A stretch of DNA of 64,000 nucleotides from Nannocystis sp. SCPEA4. GTDB taxonomy: Bacteria > Myxococcota_A > Polyangia > Nannocystales > Nannocystaceae. The stretch lies in NCBI RefSeq assembly GCF_026626685.1, contig NZ_JAPNJX010000021.1, positions 105,329 through 169,328 of the forward strand, in the 5' to 3' direction. The stretch's first letter is position 1, and each line of letters begins with the position of its first letter. The notes below the pieces were generated by a model. The model was not told the origin of the DNA and ran no database searches. It worked only from the letters and a program-made list of their open reading frames with translations. This document shows, piece after piece, positions 23,578 through 28,741 of the stretch. Made by a program: the position numbers and the translations under genes.

Positions 23578-25311
23578 TCAACCCGACCGCGCCCACGCCA
23601 CGAACGCCTCGAGCGCCGCCAGCGGAGCCTCGTCCGCGATCACGCGGGCCAGCGCCGCCAGCAGCTCCGGCTCCGCGTGGCCATCCAGGCGGGCCCGGGC
23701 CACGTTCGCGGCCAGCTCCCAGCCGGGAGAGCGCACCCCCCCGGCCAGCATCTCGCGCAGCTGCGCCAGCGCATCGGGCACGACCTCGGGCGCGTGCGCG
23801 TGCGCGTAGAAGCACAGCTCGCAGCGCAGCGGCGACCCGGCCTCCGACAGCTCGAGCGCCCGCGCCAGCAGCTCGCGCCCCTCCGCGCCGCGTCCCTCCG
23901 CGAACAGCAACCGGGCGAAGTTGCCGAGCAGGTTGGCGTCCTCCGGATCGGCCGCCAGCGCGCGGCGGTACAGCGCCTCGGCGCCGGCGACGTCGGCGAA
24001 CGCCGCCGCGCGGAAGTTGGCGTAGTTGCCGAGATGGTGCGCGTCGTCCGGCGCGGCCGCGATCGTCGCCTGGTAGCAGGCGTCGGCGCGCGCCCGATCG
24101 CCGCGGATCAGCGCCAGGAAGTTGGCGAAGTTGCCGAGGTGATCGGCGTCGTCCGGTGCGGCCGCCAGCGCCTGCTCGTAGTACGCCTCGGCGAGGTCGT
24201 GCTCGCCGCACACGTCGCTCAGGAACGCCGCGAAGTTGCCGAGCATGTCTGCATGGTCCGGCGCGTCGGCCAGGAACTTCTCATAATAACCGCGAGCCAG
24301 CGGGTTGCCGGCCGAATGTAGCGCCGTGGCGAAGCTCGCCAGCCGCGGCGAGTCGACCGGCAGCGCCTCCGCGAGCAACGCGAACAACGGGTCGCTCGCG
24401 GCGGCCGGCGCCATGTGTTCGCGCAACCGCGGGAACAACCCCCCCAGCGACGCCCCTGTCGGCTCGACCACGATCGCCACCCGCAGCAGCGCCAGCGCGC
24501 GCCCCCACGCCTGCGCCTCGATCGCCGCCTCGACGCCGCGGAGGAGCGCCCGCGCCTCGAACCCCGCGTCGACCAGCAGCTCGCGCGCCAGCGCCACGTG
24601 GGCCGCGTGCACCGGCCCGCGCTCGCTCGCCTGTTCGTGAAGCGCCAGCCGCGGGTGCTGCGGGATCGGCCCCGACAGCGCGAGTACCTCGTCCGCGAAC
24701 GCCACGCGCGCCGCCTCCTCGCGCACCGCCGTCAGCTCGTCCTCGCCGAGCGGCAGCGGGCCGTACACCACCCGCGCCGGCAACTCCGCCACACGACAGC
24801 GGCGCAGCAGCTCGGCCGTGCCCGCCACCTGCTGTTGATTGAGCGCCGTCAACACCACCACGCGATCGGCGAGCGCCCGCACCACCCGCTCCGTCGCCCG
24901 CGACAGCCCCGCCGGGCCGTCGACCAGCACCACGTCGGCGATCTCGGCGGCGTCGAGGCGGCGCCGCAGTTCGCCCAGCACCGCCGCGCGCTCGCCCTGC
25001 GGCCACGCGTCCAGACGATCCCAGTACGCCGCATCGAGCCGGCCCGCCCGCAGCACCCGCAGCGTCCCCGCGATCGGCACGCAGCACCCTGCCATCGCCG
25101 CGGCTTCCGGCACCCCCGCCGTCATCAGCTCCACGAGCCCGTCGCCGTCGCCGCCGGCCAGCCGCGACAGCCCCGGCGACTCGAGATCGGCGTCGACGAG
25201 CAACACCCGCAGCCCACGCGCCGCCAGCACGCGCCCGACGCCCAGCACCGCCAGCGTCCTGCCCACGCCGCCGTGAGCCGACCAGAACGTGATGAACGGC
25301 GCCGCCTGCAT
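23578..25311 (-). CDS. ParA/MinD-like P-loop ATPase domain (deviant Walker A lacking both lysines) fused to TPR repeats
   Basis: N-terminus FITFWSAHGGVGRT...VLLVDADL resembles KGGVGKT...D-D of ParA/MinD with K replaced by H and R. C-terminal half is TPR-like (AEAYYEQALAAAPDDADHLGNFANFL repeats). Confidence 0.6.
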   Translation of the reverse strand: MQAAPFITFWSAHGGVGRTLAVLGVGRVLAARGLRVLLVDADLESPGLSRLAGGDGDGLVELMTAGVPEAAAMAGCCVPIAGTLRVLRAGRLDAAYWDRLDAWPQGERAAVLGELRRRLDAAEIADVVLVDGPAGLSRATERVVRALADRVVVLTALNQQQVAGTAELLRRCRVAELPARVVYGPLPLGEDELTAVREEAARVAFADEVLALSGPIPQHPRLALHEQASERGPVHAAHVALARELLVDAGFEARALLRGVEAAIEAQAWGRALALLRVAIVVEPTGASLGGLFPRLREHMAPAAASDPLFALLAEALPVDSPRLASFATALHSAGNPLARGYYEKFLADAPDHADMLGNFAAFLSDVCGEHDLAEAYYEQALAAAPDDADHLGNFANFLALIRGDRARADACYQATIAAAPDDAHHLGNYANFRAAAFADVAGAEALYRRALAADPEDANLLGNFARLLFAEGRGAEGRELLARALELSEAGSPLRCELCFYAHAHAPEVVPDALAQLREMLAGGVRSPGWELAANVARARLDGHAEPELLAALARVIADEAPLAALEAFVAWARSG

Positions 25312-25440
25312 GCCTGCGACCTCTTCTACCCGCGTGCGCCCCGCGCCGCACGCCGCCCCTGTCCCCATACGGCGTGCGGTTTCACCCGTCGCGCCCCGCA
25401 GGCCCGCCTGCCCGCGACGAGTCCCACCGTCTCCGAGTGC

Positions 25441-25625
25441 ATGTCCATTCGGACATGAATCTATTCACATGTCCATTTAGACATGTCTTGTCAATTTCGA
25501 CGAGTCCATTCCTACGGACATTGTCTATGACTCCATGAACATATGTCCATTCAGGCACATTTCTGCGCCCCTCGACGGGCCGGGCCGCGCTGCGAAAGCC
25601 TGTCCGTAACGACATGTCCTACGAA
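25441..25625. repeat. AT-rich island made of tandem GACATGTCC-family repeats, upstream of the ParA-TPR gene
   Basis: CATGTCCATTCGGACATGAATCTATTCACATGTCCATTTAGACATGTCTTG...GACGAGTCCATTCCTACGGACATTGTCTATGAC...ATATGTCCATTCAGG...CGACATGTCCTACG. Local GC is far below the window average. Confidence 0.7.
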
Positions 25626-28063: not shown

Positions 28064-28135
28064 CGCACGGCGGGTCCGCCCGCGGACCGGCTGTTTTTCT
28101 GGTCACCGCCGGGCCGCGTCTGCTATGGTCCGCCC

Positions 28136-28741
28136 ATGTCTTCTCTTATCGATTGCCCTGAGTGCGCCTGTCTATTCCGAGCGTCCGACGCCAGCTGCCC
28201 GTTCTGCGGTCACACTCAGCGTCACACGTTCAGCCCCTCGTGGACGGCAATCGCCCTGAGCGCGAGCCTCGGTGTGATGGGTGCCGCCTGCCAGCTCGAC
28301 AAGGATCCCGGCGACACGGCGACCACCGATCCGAGCGAGTCCGGCACCGAGGCCGCGGCCGACTCCGAGACCGCCGGCGACACCTCGACCGCCGGCGACA
28401 CCTCGACCTCCAACGGCCCCCTCACCACCACCTCTGGCGGCGAGAACACCGTCGGCGACACGACCATCGATCCGCCGAACCCCTCGGGCGACGGCTCCAC
28501 CTACGCCGGCCCCGACGAAGGGTGGACCACCGAGGACAGCAGCACCACCACCACGACCGGCGGCCCCTCGACCACCACGACCACGACGAACTGGAGCACC
28601 ACGGACGCCTCGACCTACGCCGGCCCCGACGAGGGCTGGACGACCAGCGGCACCGGCGACCCCGAGAGCACCAGCACCAGCACCAGCACCAGCACCGGCA
28701 CCACCGGTGAGACCACCAGCACCGGCACCACCGGCGGCTGA
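28136..28741 (+). CDS. Zinc-ribbon / TM / Thr-Ser-Gly-rich low-complexity protein
   Basis: MSSLIDCPECACLF...CPFCGH zinc ribbon, one TM helix, then a tail with STYAGPDEGWTT x2 and poly-Thr runs. Confidence 0.5.
   Translation: MSSLIDCPECACLFRASDASCPFCGHTQRHTFSPSWTAIALSASLGVMGAACQLDKDPGDTATTDPSESGTEAAADSETAGDTSTAGDTSTSNGPLTTTSGGENTVGDTTIDPPNPSGDGSTYAGPDEGWTTEDSSTTTTTGGPSTTTTTTNWSTTDASTYAGPDEGWTTSGTGDPESTSTSTSTSTGTTGETTSTGTTGG

Follow-up and report, generated by a model that had tools for sequence, protein, structure and literature searches.

The question raised by this locus of Nannocystis sp. SCPEA4, which lies in an analysed stretch of 64,000 nt (the window), is whether three neighbouring genes, coding for a ParA-like ATPase fused to TPRs (ParA-TPR), an HTTM membrane protein and a small zinc-ribbon protein, form a single envelope-modification or positioning module, as proposed in a preliminary description of positions 23578-28741. 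The three genes are indeed found there, with small corrections to the starts of the ParA-TPR and zinc-ribbon genes, and the domain calls made for them were right (ParA/MinD-like N-terminus, TPRs, HTTM, and a one-helix zinc-ribbon protein whose tail is rich in Thr). We nevertheless consider, with a probability of roughly 0.55, that the region, taken together with the radical SAM (rSAM) gene beside it, holds two separate things. One is a conserved trio made up of the rSAM/SPASM gene (29180-30499), the zinc-ribbon gene (28136-28741) and the HTTM gene (25619-28063), which would constitute a cassette for a modified exported lipoprotein; the other is ParA-TPR. The zinc-ribbon and HTTM genes belong with the neighbouring rSAM enzyme, of the "splicease" type, and their product is probably a chemically altered surface lipoprotein.

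An rSAM gene (77-100% identical) and a zinc-ribbon gene accompany the orthologue of the HTTM gene at 17 loci from several genera (Nannocystis, Paraliomyxa and MAGs), with differing flanking genes. The trio stays clustered despite a changed gene order at one locus (L016) or an inserted gene at another (L013), and a paralogous trio (L056; HTTM 33% and rSAM 44% identical) has a zinc-ribbon/lipobox protein of its own, carrying EPAYGVP and EPLYGAL. Paralogous rSAM loci in N. radixulma, Plesiocystis and Enhygromyxa all (3/3) have an adjacent gene for a protein with a zinc ribbon, a lipobox and an acidic tail, the tails repeating SYYAGP, DYGGPPP or DYGAPPP. However, more than 30 HTTM paralogue loci (most in the family) have no rSAM or zinc-ribbon gene nearby and three rSAM/zinc-ribbon pairs come without HTTM, so that the HTTM protein could be an optional or unrelated neighbour; moreover, all loci are from one bacterial family, so some of the conservation simply reflects synteny. 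The trio reaches past the coordinates first given, and the adjacent rSAM gene, which unlike ParA-TPR is conserved alongside the HTTM and zinc-ribbon genes as their partner, had been overlooked.

The rSAM gene (29180-30499, reverse strand) encodes an enzyme of 439 aa with a Pfam Radical_SAM match at 3e-25 and a CX3CX2C motif reading CDQHCAHC. It is a homologue of the tyramine splicease PlpX, sharing 44% identity over 399 aa (E 5e-98) with the PlpX sequence given in a machine-read PDF, the supplement of PMC9484694. Its best NCBIfam matches are TIGR04103 (430.8 bits) and TIGR03913 (412.7 bits), the third reaching only 154.8 bits; both scores are under the equivalog cut-offs, so that the enzyme belongs to a sister family, which could catalyse a different reaction. 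PlpX removes tyramine at X-Y-G motifs (PMC11414181; PMC11002830; PMC9811515), the Gly after the Tyr being part of the described splice motif. Similar chemistry in the Nannocystis enzyme would be an extrapolation from the 44% identity between the two.

The predicted precursor (substrate) of the rSAM enzyme, and a predicted exported lipoprotein, is the acidic, Ser/Thr-rich zinc-ribbon protein of 201 aa (28136-28741, forward strand), whose family was recovered in 15-18 loci beside rSAM and HTTM, and for which no Pfam or NCBIfam family was found. Its conserved start is 28136, not 27977. The zinc ribbon, CPEC-x11-CPFCG (aa 7-25; 28154-28210, forward), is predicted to be cytoplasmic, as basic residues before the single hydrophobic helix and acidic ones after it point to an N-in orientation; CPFCG is invariant in one alignment of the family, and C-P-[FH]-C-[GA] is kept in 19/19 members. 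In two paralogues the zinc ribbon shows weak similarity to the C-terminal part (positions 427-455) of the rSAM profile TIGR03913. The helix ends in Cys52 (GAAC followed by Q; 28289-28291, forward), a lipobox-like signal-peptidase II site conserved in the family, all 19 members having small-small-Cys at this point (AAC, VSC, ISC, LSC, VAC, IAC, FGC, VGC or TGC).

The tail (45% Ser+Thr) contains two T-Y-A-G-P-D-E repeats, the first of which (aa 122-128; 28499-28519, forward) is a candidate splice-like modification site and the second of which (aa 160-166; 28613-28633, forward) has the same sequence; they hold the only two Tyr residues of the protein. Nearly all tail tyrosines fall within T-Y-(A/G)-G-P-D-E repeats, and across the 19 family members 40 of 48 are in Y-[AGS]-G or Y-G motifs, the other tail sequence being hypervariable. 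In their sequence these repeats resemble splice sites: several orthologues read T-Y-G-G, and canonical X-Y-G (TYG, DYG, AYG, LYG) occurs in many orthologues and in 3/4 paralogous partners. The Nannocystis sp. SCPEA4 protein itself has Y-A-G rather than canonical Y-G sites. One extra copy of the family ends in a MYXO-CTERM-like sorting signal.

The HTTM gene (25619-28063, reverse strand), whose start lies 72 bp from that of the divergently transcribed zinc-ribbon gene, codes for a polytopic membrane protein of 814 aa resembling vitamin-K-dependent carboxylase (Pfam HTTM, 41.8 bits vs a cut-off of 27.7). We found 66 homologues, all named ones being from Nannocystaceae/Myxococcota. The 16 best PDB fold matches of the AF2 model (pLDDT 85, pTM 0.88) are all human GGCX (E 2e-7, ~700 aligned columns), with a low global TM-score of about 0.3, and the family profile matches GGCX at E 2e-4. 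In the profile alignment (riPaWPqaL..GwaKsG vs HVPLWNYAV..GVKKLD), Lys265 (codon 27269-27271, reverse), which is invariant in 23 family members, aligns with Lys218, the catalytic base of human GGCX (PMC12589487), while F422/H423/N426/G433/F435 align with the vitamin-K pocket F286/H287/N290/G297/F299.

If the trio acts as a cassette, the zinc-ribbon protein would start out with its zinc ribbon in the cytoplasm, followed by a signal helix of the lipoprotein type and an acidic, disordered Ser/Thr tail bearing the two tyrosine sites, and the zinc-ribbon/signal region would serve as leader for the PlpX-like rSAM enzyme, which would modify these sites in the cytoplasm. The most likely reaction would be tyramine excision leaving an alpha-keto-beta-amino amide, as in spliceotides. 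The tail would then be translocated and the protein lipidated and cut at Cys52, removing the "leader". The active site of the GGCX-like HTTM protein would be on the outer face of the inner membrane. There Lys265, with menaquinol and O2, could bring about a further change in the exported tail close to the D-E of the motif, either carboxylation or a different base-driven reaction; or else the HTTM protein might be needed for maturation, as SdpB is for SdpC. The end product would be a membrane-anchored polypeptide with ketoamide warheads, and such a lipoprotein, if it exists, would plausibly be a protease inhibitor.

The ParA-TPR open reading frame spans 23578-25368 (reverse strand), but the Met at 25311 is the start in all 11 orthologues, giving a protein of 577 aa (23578-25311, reverse) with a KGGVGR-family ParA/MinD-fold domain and a TPR superhelix. 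CbiA and TPR_17/TPR_19 are its Pfam matches over cut-off (AAA_31 is slightly under), and it passes the curated cut-off of NCBIfam NF047398, "KGGVGR-motif variant AAA ATPase" (93.8 bits vs 90). In the AF2 model (pLDDT 84) the N-domain, followed by the superhelix, matches Soj and MinD with a TM of 0.76-0.79 on the target and an rmsd of 2.8-3.5 A, and the variant Walker A motif SAHGGVGRT (25255-25281, reverse) aligns residue for residue with GKGGVGKT of MinD, which together bear out the ParA/MinD-like nature of the domain. His stands at the signature Lys and Arg at the P-loop Lys, and the motif is invariant in the 11 orthologues (64-94% identity) save one V-to-A change; the replacement of both lysines is real.

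The pseudo-ATPase idea built on this loss calls for some qualification, since the Arg P-loop is strictly conserved and the aspartates are invariant. Of the nearest cluster representatives, 132 have a recognisable motif and 129 of these show Lys-to-Arg, and the Walker A' and Walker B aspartates are kept without exception down to 22-28% identity. The first motif residue in the 149 nearest cluster representatives is K in 112, R in 17, S in one and H in one, His being confined among them to the Nannocystis clade. The NF047398 family, large and diverse with 359 cluster representatives of 300-1100 aa at E<=1e-10, is catalogued but unstudied, no mention of the KGGVGR motif in the ATPase-family sense having been found in the literature searched; Lys-to-Arg is its defining feature and the extra Lys-to-His is special to Nannocystis. 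Judged by this conservation, the P-loop looks like a selected ligand-binding site rather than a decayed one, and ParA-TPR is most likely a nucleotide-binding switch or scaffold, with slow or no hydrolysis, that would offer its TPR surface to a partner.

Could that partner be the membrane enzyme next door, the lysine-less ParA acting as its pseudo-ATPase scaffold in one module with the HTTM and zinc-ribbon proteins? TPR domains commonly serve as protein-binding scaffolds, all seven loci of the genus Nannocystis have the three genes side by side, and in every Nannocystis genome ParA-TPR comes immediately downstream of HTTM in the same orientation; still, we regard this as quite improbable. The Nannocystis region is syntenic throughout, from the MVP-like gene to the GFA gene, which leaves adjacency with little weight, and 10 loci of other Nannocystaceae (all with >=5 kb downstream) have the HTTM orthologue but no ParA-TPR, while HTTM is absent at 4/4 sampled KGGVGR-family loci outside Nannocystis, three of which encode ParA-TPR proteins. 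The preliminary description had named a lack of conserved co-occurrence as an argument against its own module, which is largely refuted on that ground: the ParA-TPR/HTTM pair is limited to Nannocystis, and what stands of the three-gene neighbourhood is the linkage of zinc-ribbon and HTTM genes, with rSAM. HTTM and ParA-TPR also lie 307 bp apart (in other Nannocystis species, about 450-530 bp), with an AT-richer, operator-rich intergenic region upstream of ParA-TPR (25312-25618, reverse) that holds the only sigma-70-like match of the region and a cluster of (A)TGGACAT(G/A)T / GGACATGTCC-type boxes; five Nannocystis species have similar boxes in this spacer, the remainder of which has diverged. 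Two inverted elements, said to enclose the block, are real, but they are about 264 nt rather than 235 bp long. The left copy (22576-22839, unstranded), with its own internal hairpin, and the right, inverted copy (28890-29152, unstranded) are 82-88% complementary; the latter lies between the zinc-ribbon and rSAM genes, inside the conserved trio, and a GFA-family gene (22985-23479) also falls between the two. They are found only in Nannocystis sp. SCPEA4 and N. radixulma, and other Nannocystis species share the gene order without having them, so the elements mark no boundary of a unit. ParA-TPR appears, on these sequence grounds, to be separately regulated, Nannocystis-specific and no core component of the trio, although its genus-wide position directly downstream of HTTM in the same orientation means that it may play an accessory role. 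That it instead serves a conflict system (anti-phage or signalling) as sensor or scaffold, its Arg P-loop binding nucleotide, its TPRs sensing a target and its neighbours being irrelevant, is unlikely. The protein matches the PADLOC candidate-defence model PDC-M28B at 2e-16, distant relatives fuse the KGGVGR domain to TIR and STAND-like modules (P0013), and the family is architecturally diverse, but the match spans the ATPase domain only and PDC-M28 is itself still a candidate awaiting validation, the genes next to ParA-TPR include no PDC-M28A-type or effector partner, and ParA-TPR is single-copy, vertically conserved and fixed in position in Nannocystis, unlike typical mobile defence islands.

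For the trio, it is possible, if doubtful, that the association is real and the rSAM enzyme does not splice, but alters the Tyr motif in some other way, for instance by a cross-link, a hydroxylation or an epimerisation, or that the zinc-ribbon protein is its partner or regulator rather than its substrate. The scores under both curated cut-offs and the Y-A-G of the Nannocystis sp. SCPEA4 motif fit such a reading, rSAM/SPASM families differ in chemistry at this level of identity, and the weak resemblance of the zinc ribbon to the C-terminal module of TIGR03913 could make it an enzyme-associated domain. Against this, the identity to PlpX extends over the full length, X-Y-G is present in orthologues and paralogous partners, and Tyr is almost confined to the motif. 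It is very improbable that the zinc-ribbon protein is an anti-sigma-like membrane signalling protein, adjacent to rSAM and HTTM through inherited synteny with no functional link, even though its architecture (zinc N-terminus, one helix, extracytoplasmic tail) superficially recalls single-pass anti-sigma factors that bind zinc, two paralogous loci have ECF sigma genes within 3-5 kb, and a single family supplies all loci. No sigma factor gene is adjacent in the 64,000-nt window or at most loci; the tail, a low-complexity acidic stretch in which the Tyr motif alone is conserved, is not a sensor domain; the lipobox Cys is conserved; and rSAM is found paired with a zinc-ribbon gene in five or more paralogous contexts whose flanks are unrelated.

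Among known systems, canonical ParA, MinD and Soj have the same fold as ParA-TPR, with Walker A', Walker B and the P-loop glycines aligning, but ParA-TPR has both lysines of xKGGxxK[ST] replaced, is without a membrane-targeting helix, DNA-binding partner gene or ParB/MinE-type neighbour, and carries ~340 residues of TPR/helical repeats fused C-terminally. With NF047398, whose ParA/MinD-fold domain is as a rule joined to TPR or other modules, it shares the GGVGR[ST] P-loop, the DxDLExPGL switch region and Walker B, its nearest relatives having the same ParA + TPR_17/TPR_19 architecture; the His at the first motif Lys sets the Nannocystis protein apart. The HTTM protein resembles GGCX in its whole-protein fold, for which GGCX is the only match, in the catalytic-lysine position, in the naphthoquinone-pocket residues F286, N290, G297 and F299 and in having a C-terminal non-membrane domain after the membrane domain. 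It differs in that the Glu-pocket residues N158/N159/H160 are not conserved, being replaced by a family-conserved RRGDAHWGGEQ in a stretch where the HMM alignment is weak, in being ~100 residues longer, with additional helices, and in its candidate substrate, a lipoprotein tail rather than a Gla-domain or propeptide-type protein. The substrate of MloH is a PKS-NRPS intermediate and not a protein.

SdpB and YitO belong to the HTTM family. In SdpABC and YitPOM of Bacillus subtilis, a membrane protein encoded beside a signal-peptide precursor is required for maturation to the secreted product (PMC6818787), and the trio likewise has an HTTM-type membrane protein encoded beside a predicted signal-peptide-bearing precursor. 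This HTTM protein is more than twice as long and, being without any NCBIfam match, is not in a curated SdpB family, while the trio has an rSAM enzyme instead of an SdpA homologue and a predicted lipoprotein instead of a free peptide toxin. Spliceotide systems, of which Scott et al. 2022 reportedly predicted 939, comprise PlpX/PcpX with PlpY and the binary RhaX, RcsX and RasX, which act on X-Y-G motifs in tagged proteins as well as in precursors of the Nif11/NHLP type. The trio is like them in the identity of its rSAM enzyme to PlpX and its best profiles, in the repeated Tyr-Gly-type motifs that the gene beside rSAM encodes in a variable disordered region, and in a binary arrangement with no PlpY-like gene, as in non-cyanobacterial types (PMC11414181). 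It differs from them in its enzyme, which is under both family cut-offs, in its T-Y-A-G site, in a putative precursor of 137-225 aa with a zinc ribbon, signal/lipobox and acidic Ser/Thr tail in place of Nif11/NHLP, and in having a GGCX-like membrane protein as its conserved third gene.

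The proteins encoded in the window (G+C about 73%) share 94-100% identity with their counterparts in Nannocystis sp. SCPEA4 and N. radixulma (Myxococcota, Nannocystaceae). The preliminary description had joined three of its genes, coding for a lysine-less ParA-like ATPase fused to TPRs (hereafter ParA-TPR), an HTTM membrane protein and a zinc-ribbon protein, into one possible module lying between two inverted elements. The region comprises, from left to right, a DUF1552-type gene (up to 22523, + strand), the left copy of the repeat element (22576-22839), a GFA-family gene (22985-23479, +), the ParA-TPR gene (23578-25311, -), a 307-bp spacer (25312-25618, -), the HTTM protein gene (25619-28063, -), the zinc-ribbon protein gene (28136-28741, +), the second (right, inverted) copy of the element (28890-29152), a radical-SAM/SPASM enzyme gene (29180-30499, -; the enzyme is called rSAM below) and a major-vault-protein-like (MVP-like) gene (30695-33244, -).

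The inverted elements do exist, but are about 264 nt each, with an internal imperfect hairpin in both. They are found here and in N. radixulma only, being missing in four other Nannocystis species that share the gene order; in N. radixulma, the left element is partly rearranged. We rejected them as edges of a mobile or functional block, as there are two copies only (no further copy was found in the 64 kb) and the right one interrupts a conserved trio of genes formed by rSAM, the zinc-ribbon protein and the HTTM protein. They resemble a young MITE-like or REP-like repeat.

The MVP-like protein (849 aa) carries a major-vault-protein shoulder domain (2e-30), vault repeats and an SPFH-like region. 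MVP homologues are uncommon in bacteria. Across Nannocystis species this one is 93-99% identical, far more conserved than the products of neighbouring genes, and it is only in this genus that its gene stands directly upstream of rSAM. N. exedens has a degraded second MVP/rSAM/zinc-ribbon/HTTM/ParA-TPR/GFA region at a contig end (L045; NZ_NETK01000001.1, 11255531-11270726), with fragmented matches of 47-94% identity. As the intact copy (L008, 66310-88709) is close to the opposite end of this 11.27-Mb contig, the degraded region probably arose where a circular long-read assembly overlaps itself with many errors, and is not a true duplication.

Whether ParA-TPR belongs with the HTTM protein was examined from both sides. 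A scan of 185,579 species genomes for the HTTM protein gave 55 loci, each of which belongs to the Nannocystaceae or to an unclassified Myxococcota MAG, and the window's six proteins were compared by tblastn with all of these. ParA-TPR is present only in HTTM loci of the genus Nannocystis (N. radixulma, bainbridge, exedens, RBIL2, punicea, pusilla), in which the entire stretch from the MVP-like to the GFA-family gene is syntenic. It is missing in ten HTTM loci that are orthologous but come from other lineages, all reaching 5 kb or more downstream; downstream of HTTM there is an APP1-type phosphatase gene in L002 and a Uma2-like gene in L004. From the other side, no HTTM gene was found within 8 kb of four KGGVGR-family genes (the family to which ParA-TPR belongs) from outside the genus, three of them with TPRs and one, with the motif SARGGVGQS, from a Nannocystaceae MAG. 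The preliminary description had suggested looking for co-occurrence of HTTM homologues with deviant ParA-TPR proteins; none is seen outside Nannocystis in either direction. With no conserved co-occurrence, the ParA/HTTM module as first framed is not supported, and what is conserved instead is the trio, with rSAM as the conserved partner.

The spacer upstream of the ParA-TPR gene is AT-richer and contains the sole sigma-70-like match in 8.3 kb, along with clustered (A)TGGACAT(G/A)T boxes. The same type of GGACATGTCC box is found in this spacer in five Nannocystis species, the rest of it differing in length and sequence. Together, this box-bearing spacer and the search from both sides indicate that ParA-TPR is an independently regulated, genus-specific gene. 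A small ORF within the spacer (25382-25615, -) was judged non-coding, being AT-rich, overlaid with regulatory boxes and part of a spacer that differs greatly between species. The box cluster itself (25441-25619) is conserved upstream of the ParA-TPR gene in five Nannocystis species. In the window, GGACATRT is found 25 times where 0.7 copies of this octamer are expected, and ATGGACAT 8 times where 0.4 are expected, with full GGACATGTCC palindromes at 859-868, 40810-40819 and 63504-63513, among others; this type of box looks like a genome-wide cis-element.

Upstream of the HTTM gene, all informative orthologous loci have a divergent zinc-ribbon gene and, beyond it, the rSAM gene. The rSAM protein is 77-100% identical in seventeen of these loci, the eighteenth being a degraded duplicate at a contig end. 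The flanking genes vary with lineage: rSAM is preceded by a two-component system in L002, by an unrelated gene in L004 and, in Nannocystis, by the MVP-like gene. The cluster persists through a rearrangement (L016) and an insertion (L013). A paralogous trio is found in L056, with an HTTM protein 33% and an rSAM 44% identical to those of the window and a zinc-ribbon protein of its own. Three further rSAM paralogues (62-66% identical), from N. radixulma (L065:3970-7877), Plesiocystis pacifica (L066:6001-8979) and Enhygromyxa salina (L067:6001-7801), each adjoin a gene for a protein with zinc ribbon, lipobox and acidic tail, without HTTM; these zinc-ribbon proteins carry repeated SYYAGP, DYGGPPP or DYGAPPP. 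The invariant pair is therefore rSAM plus the zinc-ribbon protein, while HTTM joins them stably as a third gene in one orthologous group and in at least one paralogous group. ORF clustering of the 55 HTTM loci revealed no conserved partners for the approximately 30 paralogous HTTM genes, giving generic families only (histidine kinases, Ser/Thr kinases, HscA). We put the probability that the trio, and not ParA-TPR, is the functional unit at about 0.8. The divergent neighbour in L065 is a PMT_2-type polytopic glycosyltransferase in place of HTTM, which suggests that the same type of precursor goes together with different membrane enzymes.

The two best NCBIfam matches of rSAM are TIGR04103 (nif11-class peptide maturase 3; 430.8 bits, below the equivalog cut-off of 725) and TIGR03913 (GDL-motif peptide maturase; 412.7 bits, below the equivalog cut-off of 591.75), the third reaching 155 bits. 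With scores under both cut-offs, rSAM represents a sister family, not an equivalog. No literature was found on TIGR04103 or TIGR03913. We take the former model to correspond to InterPro entry IPR026482, that of PlpX, the founding tyramine splicease. This entry is a subclass of the SPASM rSAM enzymes (review, PMC11002830). BLASTP aligns rSAM with PlpX at 44% identity over 399 residues (E 5e-98), the PlpX sequence having been machine-read from the supplement of PMC9484694, so that a few residues may be wrong. The CX3CX2C motif is present in rSAM and a SPASM region is detected weakly. Spliceases cut a tyramine equivalent out of X-Y-G motifs and reseal the chain as an alpha-keto-beta-amino amide (PMC11414181, PMC9811515), with a loss of C8H9NO (135.07 Da), and those from outside the cyanobacteria are binary enzyme/precursor pairs (PMC11414181). 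The ketoamide of spliceotides is a protease-inhibitor pharmacophore, and their native products and natural roles have been described as elusive (PMC9811515).

The zinc-ribbon protein is the candidate substrate. Its earlier description as a zinc ribbon, one helix and a Thr-rich tail stands, its start does not: the conserved start is at 28136. The 19 family members have a fixed architecture, C-x2-C ... C-P-[FH]-C-[GA] followed by a short basic stretch and a hydrophobic helix of 15-18 residues, which in 19/19 ends in a lipobox-like [small][small]-Cys. With its basic n-region, hydrophobic stretch and lipobox Cys, the protein shows the pattern of a putative lipoprotein signal, an unusual one in that a zinc ribbon of about 25 residues stands in front, and its charge distribution predicts an N-in/C-out orientation. 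The tails (100-180 residues; Ser+Thr 29-48%, Asp+Glu 13-25%, Lys+Arg about 1%) are hypervariable but for one to three copies of (D/G)(A/G)(S/V)-T-Y-(A/G)-G-P-D-(E/S), and 40 of the 48 tail tyrosines of the 19 members are in Y-[AGS]-G or Y-G motifs. The only two tyrosines of the window protein are both in T-Y-A-G-P-D-E (28499-28519 and 28613-28633). The residue after Tyr is thus Ala, not the canonical Gly, as it is in most orthologues, several others having T-Y-G-G. The paralogous partners have A-Y-G, L-Y-G, D-Y-G-G and D-Y-G-A, with S-Y-Y-A-G in one of four, so that most of them (3/4) carry the canonical X-Y-G. That the zinc-ribbon protein is an rSAM substrate undergoing splicing chemistry seems to us about an even bet.

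No Pfam or NCBIfam family was found for the zinc-ribbon protein even at E ≤ 1, only generic zinc-finger noise. The ribbons of two paralogues (L067:7388-7801 and L056:12870-13319) weakly match the C-terminal positions 427-455 of TIGR03913 (E 0.004 and 0.03), which hints that the ribbon may be a module going with this rSAM enzyme family. It may be fused to the enzyme in the TIGR03913 sister family, as a fusion hint of interaction, with a match too weak to be relied on. Second copies of the zinc-ribbon/T-Y-A/G-G gene lie near the trio in L012 (12551-13228, +) and L019 (4385-4906, +). The L012 copy, directly downstream of HTTM, ends in GCGC, a helix and RRRR; this resembles a MYXO-CTERM sorting signal (18.3 bits, cut-off 20) and fits an extracytoplasmic tail. 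The divergent start codons of HTTM and the zinc-ribbon gene are separated by 72 bp, which contain a G+C-rich hairpin (GGTCCGCCCGCGGACC; 28073-28097, +) followed by a T-run. A terminator would be odd at this position; the hairpin may have a regulatory function in the 5' leader of the zinc-ribbon mRNA.

The HTTM domain call is sound (PF05090, 41.8 against a gathering score of 27.7), with the match covering residues 131-204 only. The 16 best PDB fold matches of the AF2 model (pLDDT 85, pTM 0.88) are all human GGCX, the vitamin-K carboxylase, with probability 1.00, E values of 2e-7 to 1e-2 and about 700 aligned columns at a global TM of about 0.3; the family profile also matches GGCX, at E 2e-4. 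In this profile alignment, whose segments score low individually, the invariant Lys265 aligns with GGCX K218, and F422, H423, N426, G433 and F435 align with GGCX F286, H287, N290, G297 and F299. In GGCX, K218 is the base that deprotonates vitamin K hydroquinone and the latter five residues line the naphthoquinone pocket (PMC12589487, PMC13486548). The N158/N159/H160 of the GGCX Glu-pocket are not conserved, aligning to W/G/G in a weak HMM segment, and a family-invariant RRGDAHWGGEQ stands at this position. From these alignments, the quinone-activating half looks intact while the substrate pocket differs. For the region of D263, the K218 partner, a sub-sequence search against PDB gave no usable alignment, E313 being a conserved candidate counterpart by position alone; for Y395 and R436, also of the Glu-pocket, no aligned HTTM residues were found.

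The active site and C-terminal domain of GGCX face the lumen. By homology, the HTTM active site should face the periplasm, where the exported tail would be. Menaquinone is taken here as the respiratory quinone of Nannocystis. To our knowledge, almost no bacterial HTTM proteins have assigned substrates, the exceptions being MloH, which carboxylates an aspartyl intermediate, and SdpB. SdpB and YitO belong to the HTTM family. Both are required to mature toxin precursors that bear signal peptides (PMC6818787). The HTTM protein has no NCBIfam match at E ≤ 0.01, so no curated SdpB-family assignment, and no SdpA-like gene was seen in its neighbourhood. Any specific role for it seems to us less likely than not.

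As for ParA-TPR, the motif SAHGGVGRT reported for it is confirmed, and is retained in 11 orthologues (64-94% identity) with one V-to-A change. All 11 start at the Met at 25311, which places the 19 N-terminal residues of the longest ORF outside the actual protein. Both lysines are indeed replaced: in the alignment of AHGGVGRT with Aquifex MinD GKGGVGKT, His stands at the signature Lys and Arg at the P-loop Lys, and the sequence thus departs from the deviant Walker A pattern xKGGxxK[ST], which has both. The switch I/Walker A' LLVDADLE and Walker B VVLVDGPAG are in register with LLIDADI and YILVDSPAG of MinD. The N-terminus is ParA/MinD-like, as had been proposed: in the AF2 model (pLDDT 84), residues 1-230 form a seven-stranded domain matching Soj, MinD, FlhG, FleN and BcsQ (TM 0.65-0.79 on the target), the TPR superhelix that follows resembles that of OGT, and the family profile matches MinD/Soj chains at about 1e-5. 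With 93.8 bits over ORF residues 24-191, the protein also scores above the cut-off (90) of NF047398, "KGGVGR-motif variant AAA ATPase". At 23905-24288 (-), four direct repeats of 105 bp (DNA identity 71-78%) correspond to four consecutive TPR pairs whose signature is (H/D)ADxLGN(F/Y)A(x)F; this internally duplicated array is more regular than is usual for TPR domains of bacteria.

Among 1.84 billion cluster representatives, searched exhaustively with HMMER, 359 are relatives of ParA-TPR at E ≤ 1e-10. The motif is recognisable in 132 of the 149 nearest, as KGGxGR in 112, RGGxGR in 15, SGGxGR in one, RGGxGQ, RGGxGC and RGGxGS in one each, and HGGxGR in one, a fragment from the Nannocystis clade. 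This census makes Arg in place of the P-loop Lys the hallmark of the NF047398 family. The signature Lys is lost in about 15% of the 132, mostly to R, with His in the Nannocystis clade only. All ten nearest relatives scanned have a ParA-type domain match and at least one TPR-family match, and more distant ones carry TIR/STAND-like modules. Down to 22-28% identity, D40 and D131 do not vary and D42, the P-loop glycines and the Arg are invariant or almost so, which argues for a selected ligand-binding site and against a decayed one. Lys-to-Arg P-loop mutants of other NTPases show slow or absent hydrolysis with binding retained, and by analogy the likeliest behaviour of ParA-TPR would be nucleotide binding with slow or absent hydrolysis. 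The lysine-less P-loop belongs to a large, strictly conserved Arg-type family, annotated but unstudied, in which the role of the signature lysine is put to a natural test by the His variant of Nannocystis.

A defence-system reading of ParA-TPR found no support beyond the domain: PADLOC matches the ATPase domain only (PDC-M28B) and gave no match on the neighbours of five relatives, and the literature searched mentions neither PDC-M28 nor KGGVGR in the ATPase-motif sense. A small gene (143-278 aa) precedes the KGGVGR-family gene in three of four sampled loci outside Nannocystis (L061:7354-8004, L062:7573-8004, L064:7162-7998), its stop overlapping or abutting the ATPase start (≤4 bp), which suggests a conserved two-gene operon of that family. 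These small genes have no Pfam match above cut-off and no PADLOC match, and none precedes the Nannocystis ParA-TPR gene.

For the trio, we infer a possible series of steps. The rSAM enzyme would modify the Tyr sites in the cytoplasm, most likely via tyramine excision; the zinc-ribbon/signal region would serve as leader, to be removed by signal peptidase II after lipidation; the HTTM protein would carry out a quinol-dependent modification of the exported tail or be needed for its maturation; and the product would be an anchored, ketoamide-bearing polypeptide, plausibly a protease inhibitor. That an HTTM protein and a tyramine-splicease-type rSAM act in series on a lipoprotein whose ribbon and signal are a RiPP leader removed by signal peptidase II is, taken as a whole, unlikely. 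If true, this would be the first case of a membrane-anchored protein that is natively spliced (and bears ketoamides or beta-amino acids), and also the first in which a bacterial HTTM enzyme acts on a protein; the product may be a surface-tethered protease inhibitor of a predatory myxobacterium. Backbone splicing would then extend beyond secreted peptides to cell-envelope proteins, and vitamin-K-type chemistry to bacterial proteins. The cassette is a testable candidate for work on spliceotides and on bacterial HTTM proteins alike, combining a PlpX-like enzyme with a GGCX-like one whose catalytic lysine is intact and with a protein, predicted to be exported, that offers two or three discrete candidate sites.

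No literature linking HTTM proteins with radical-SAM peptide maturation was found; a link of HTTM with radical SAM in general was found in a DUF-complex preprint only. The contrast between an intact quinone-activating half and an altered substrate pocket follows the same logic as in the viral "epoxidase-only" GGCX homologues (PMC13486548). The 939 predicted splicease systems of Scott et al. (2022) may already include the zinc-ribbon/lipobox precursor class. Spliceases, GGCX-like HTTM proteins and KGGVGR ATPases are each of a kind already known; what seems new is the combination of a zinc-ribbon/lipobox precursor, a Y-A-G variant site and a conserved GGCX-like partner.
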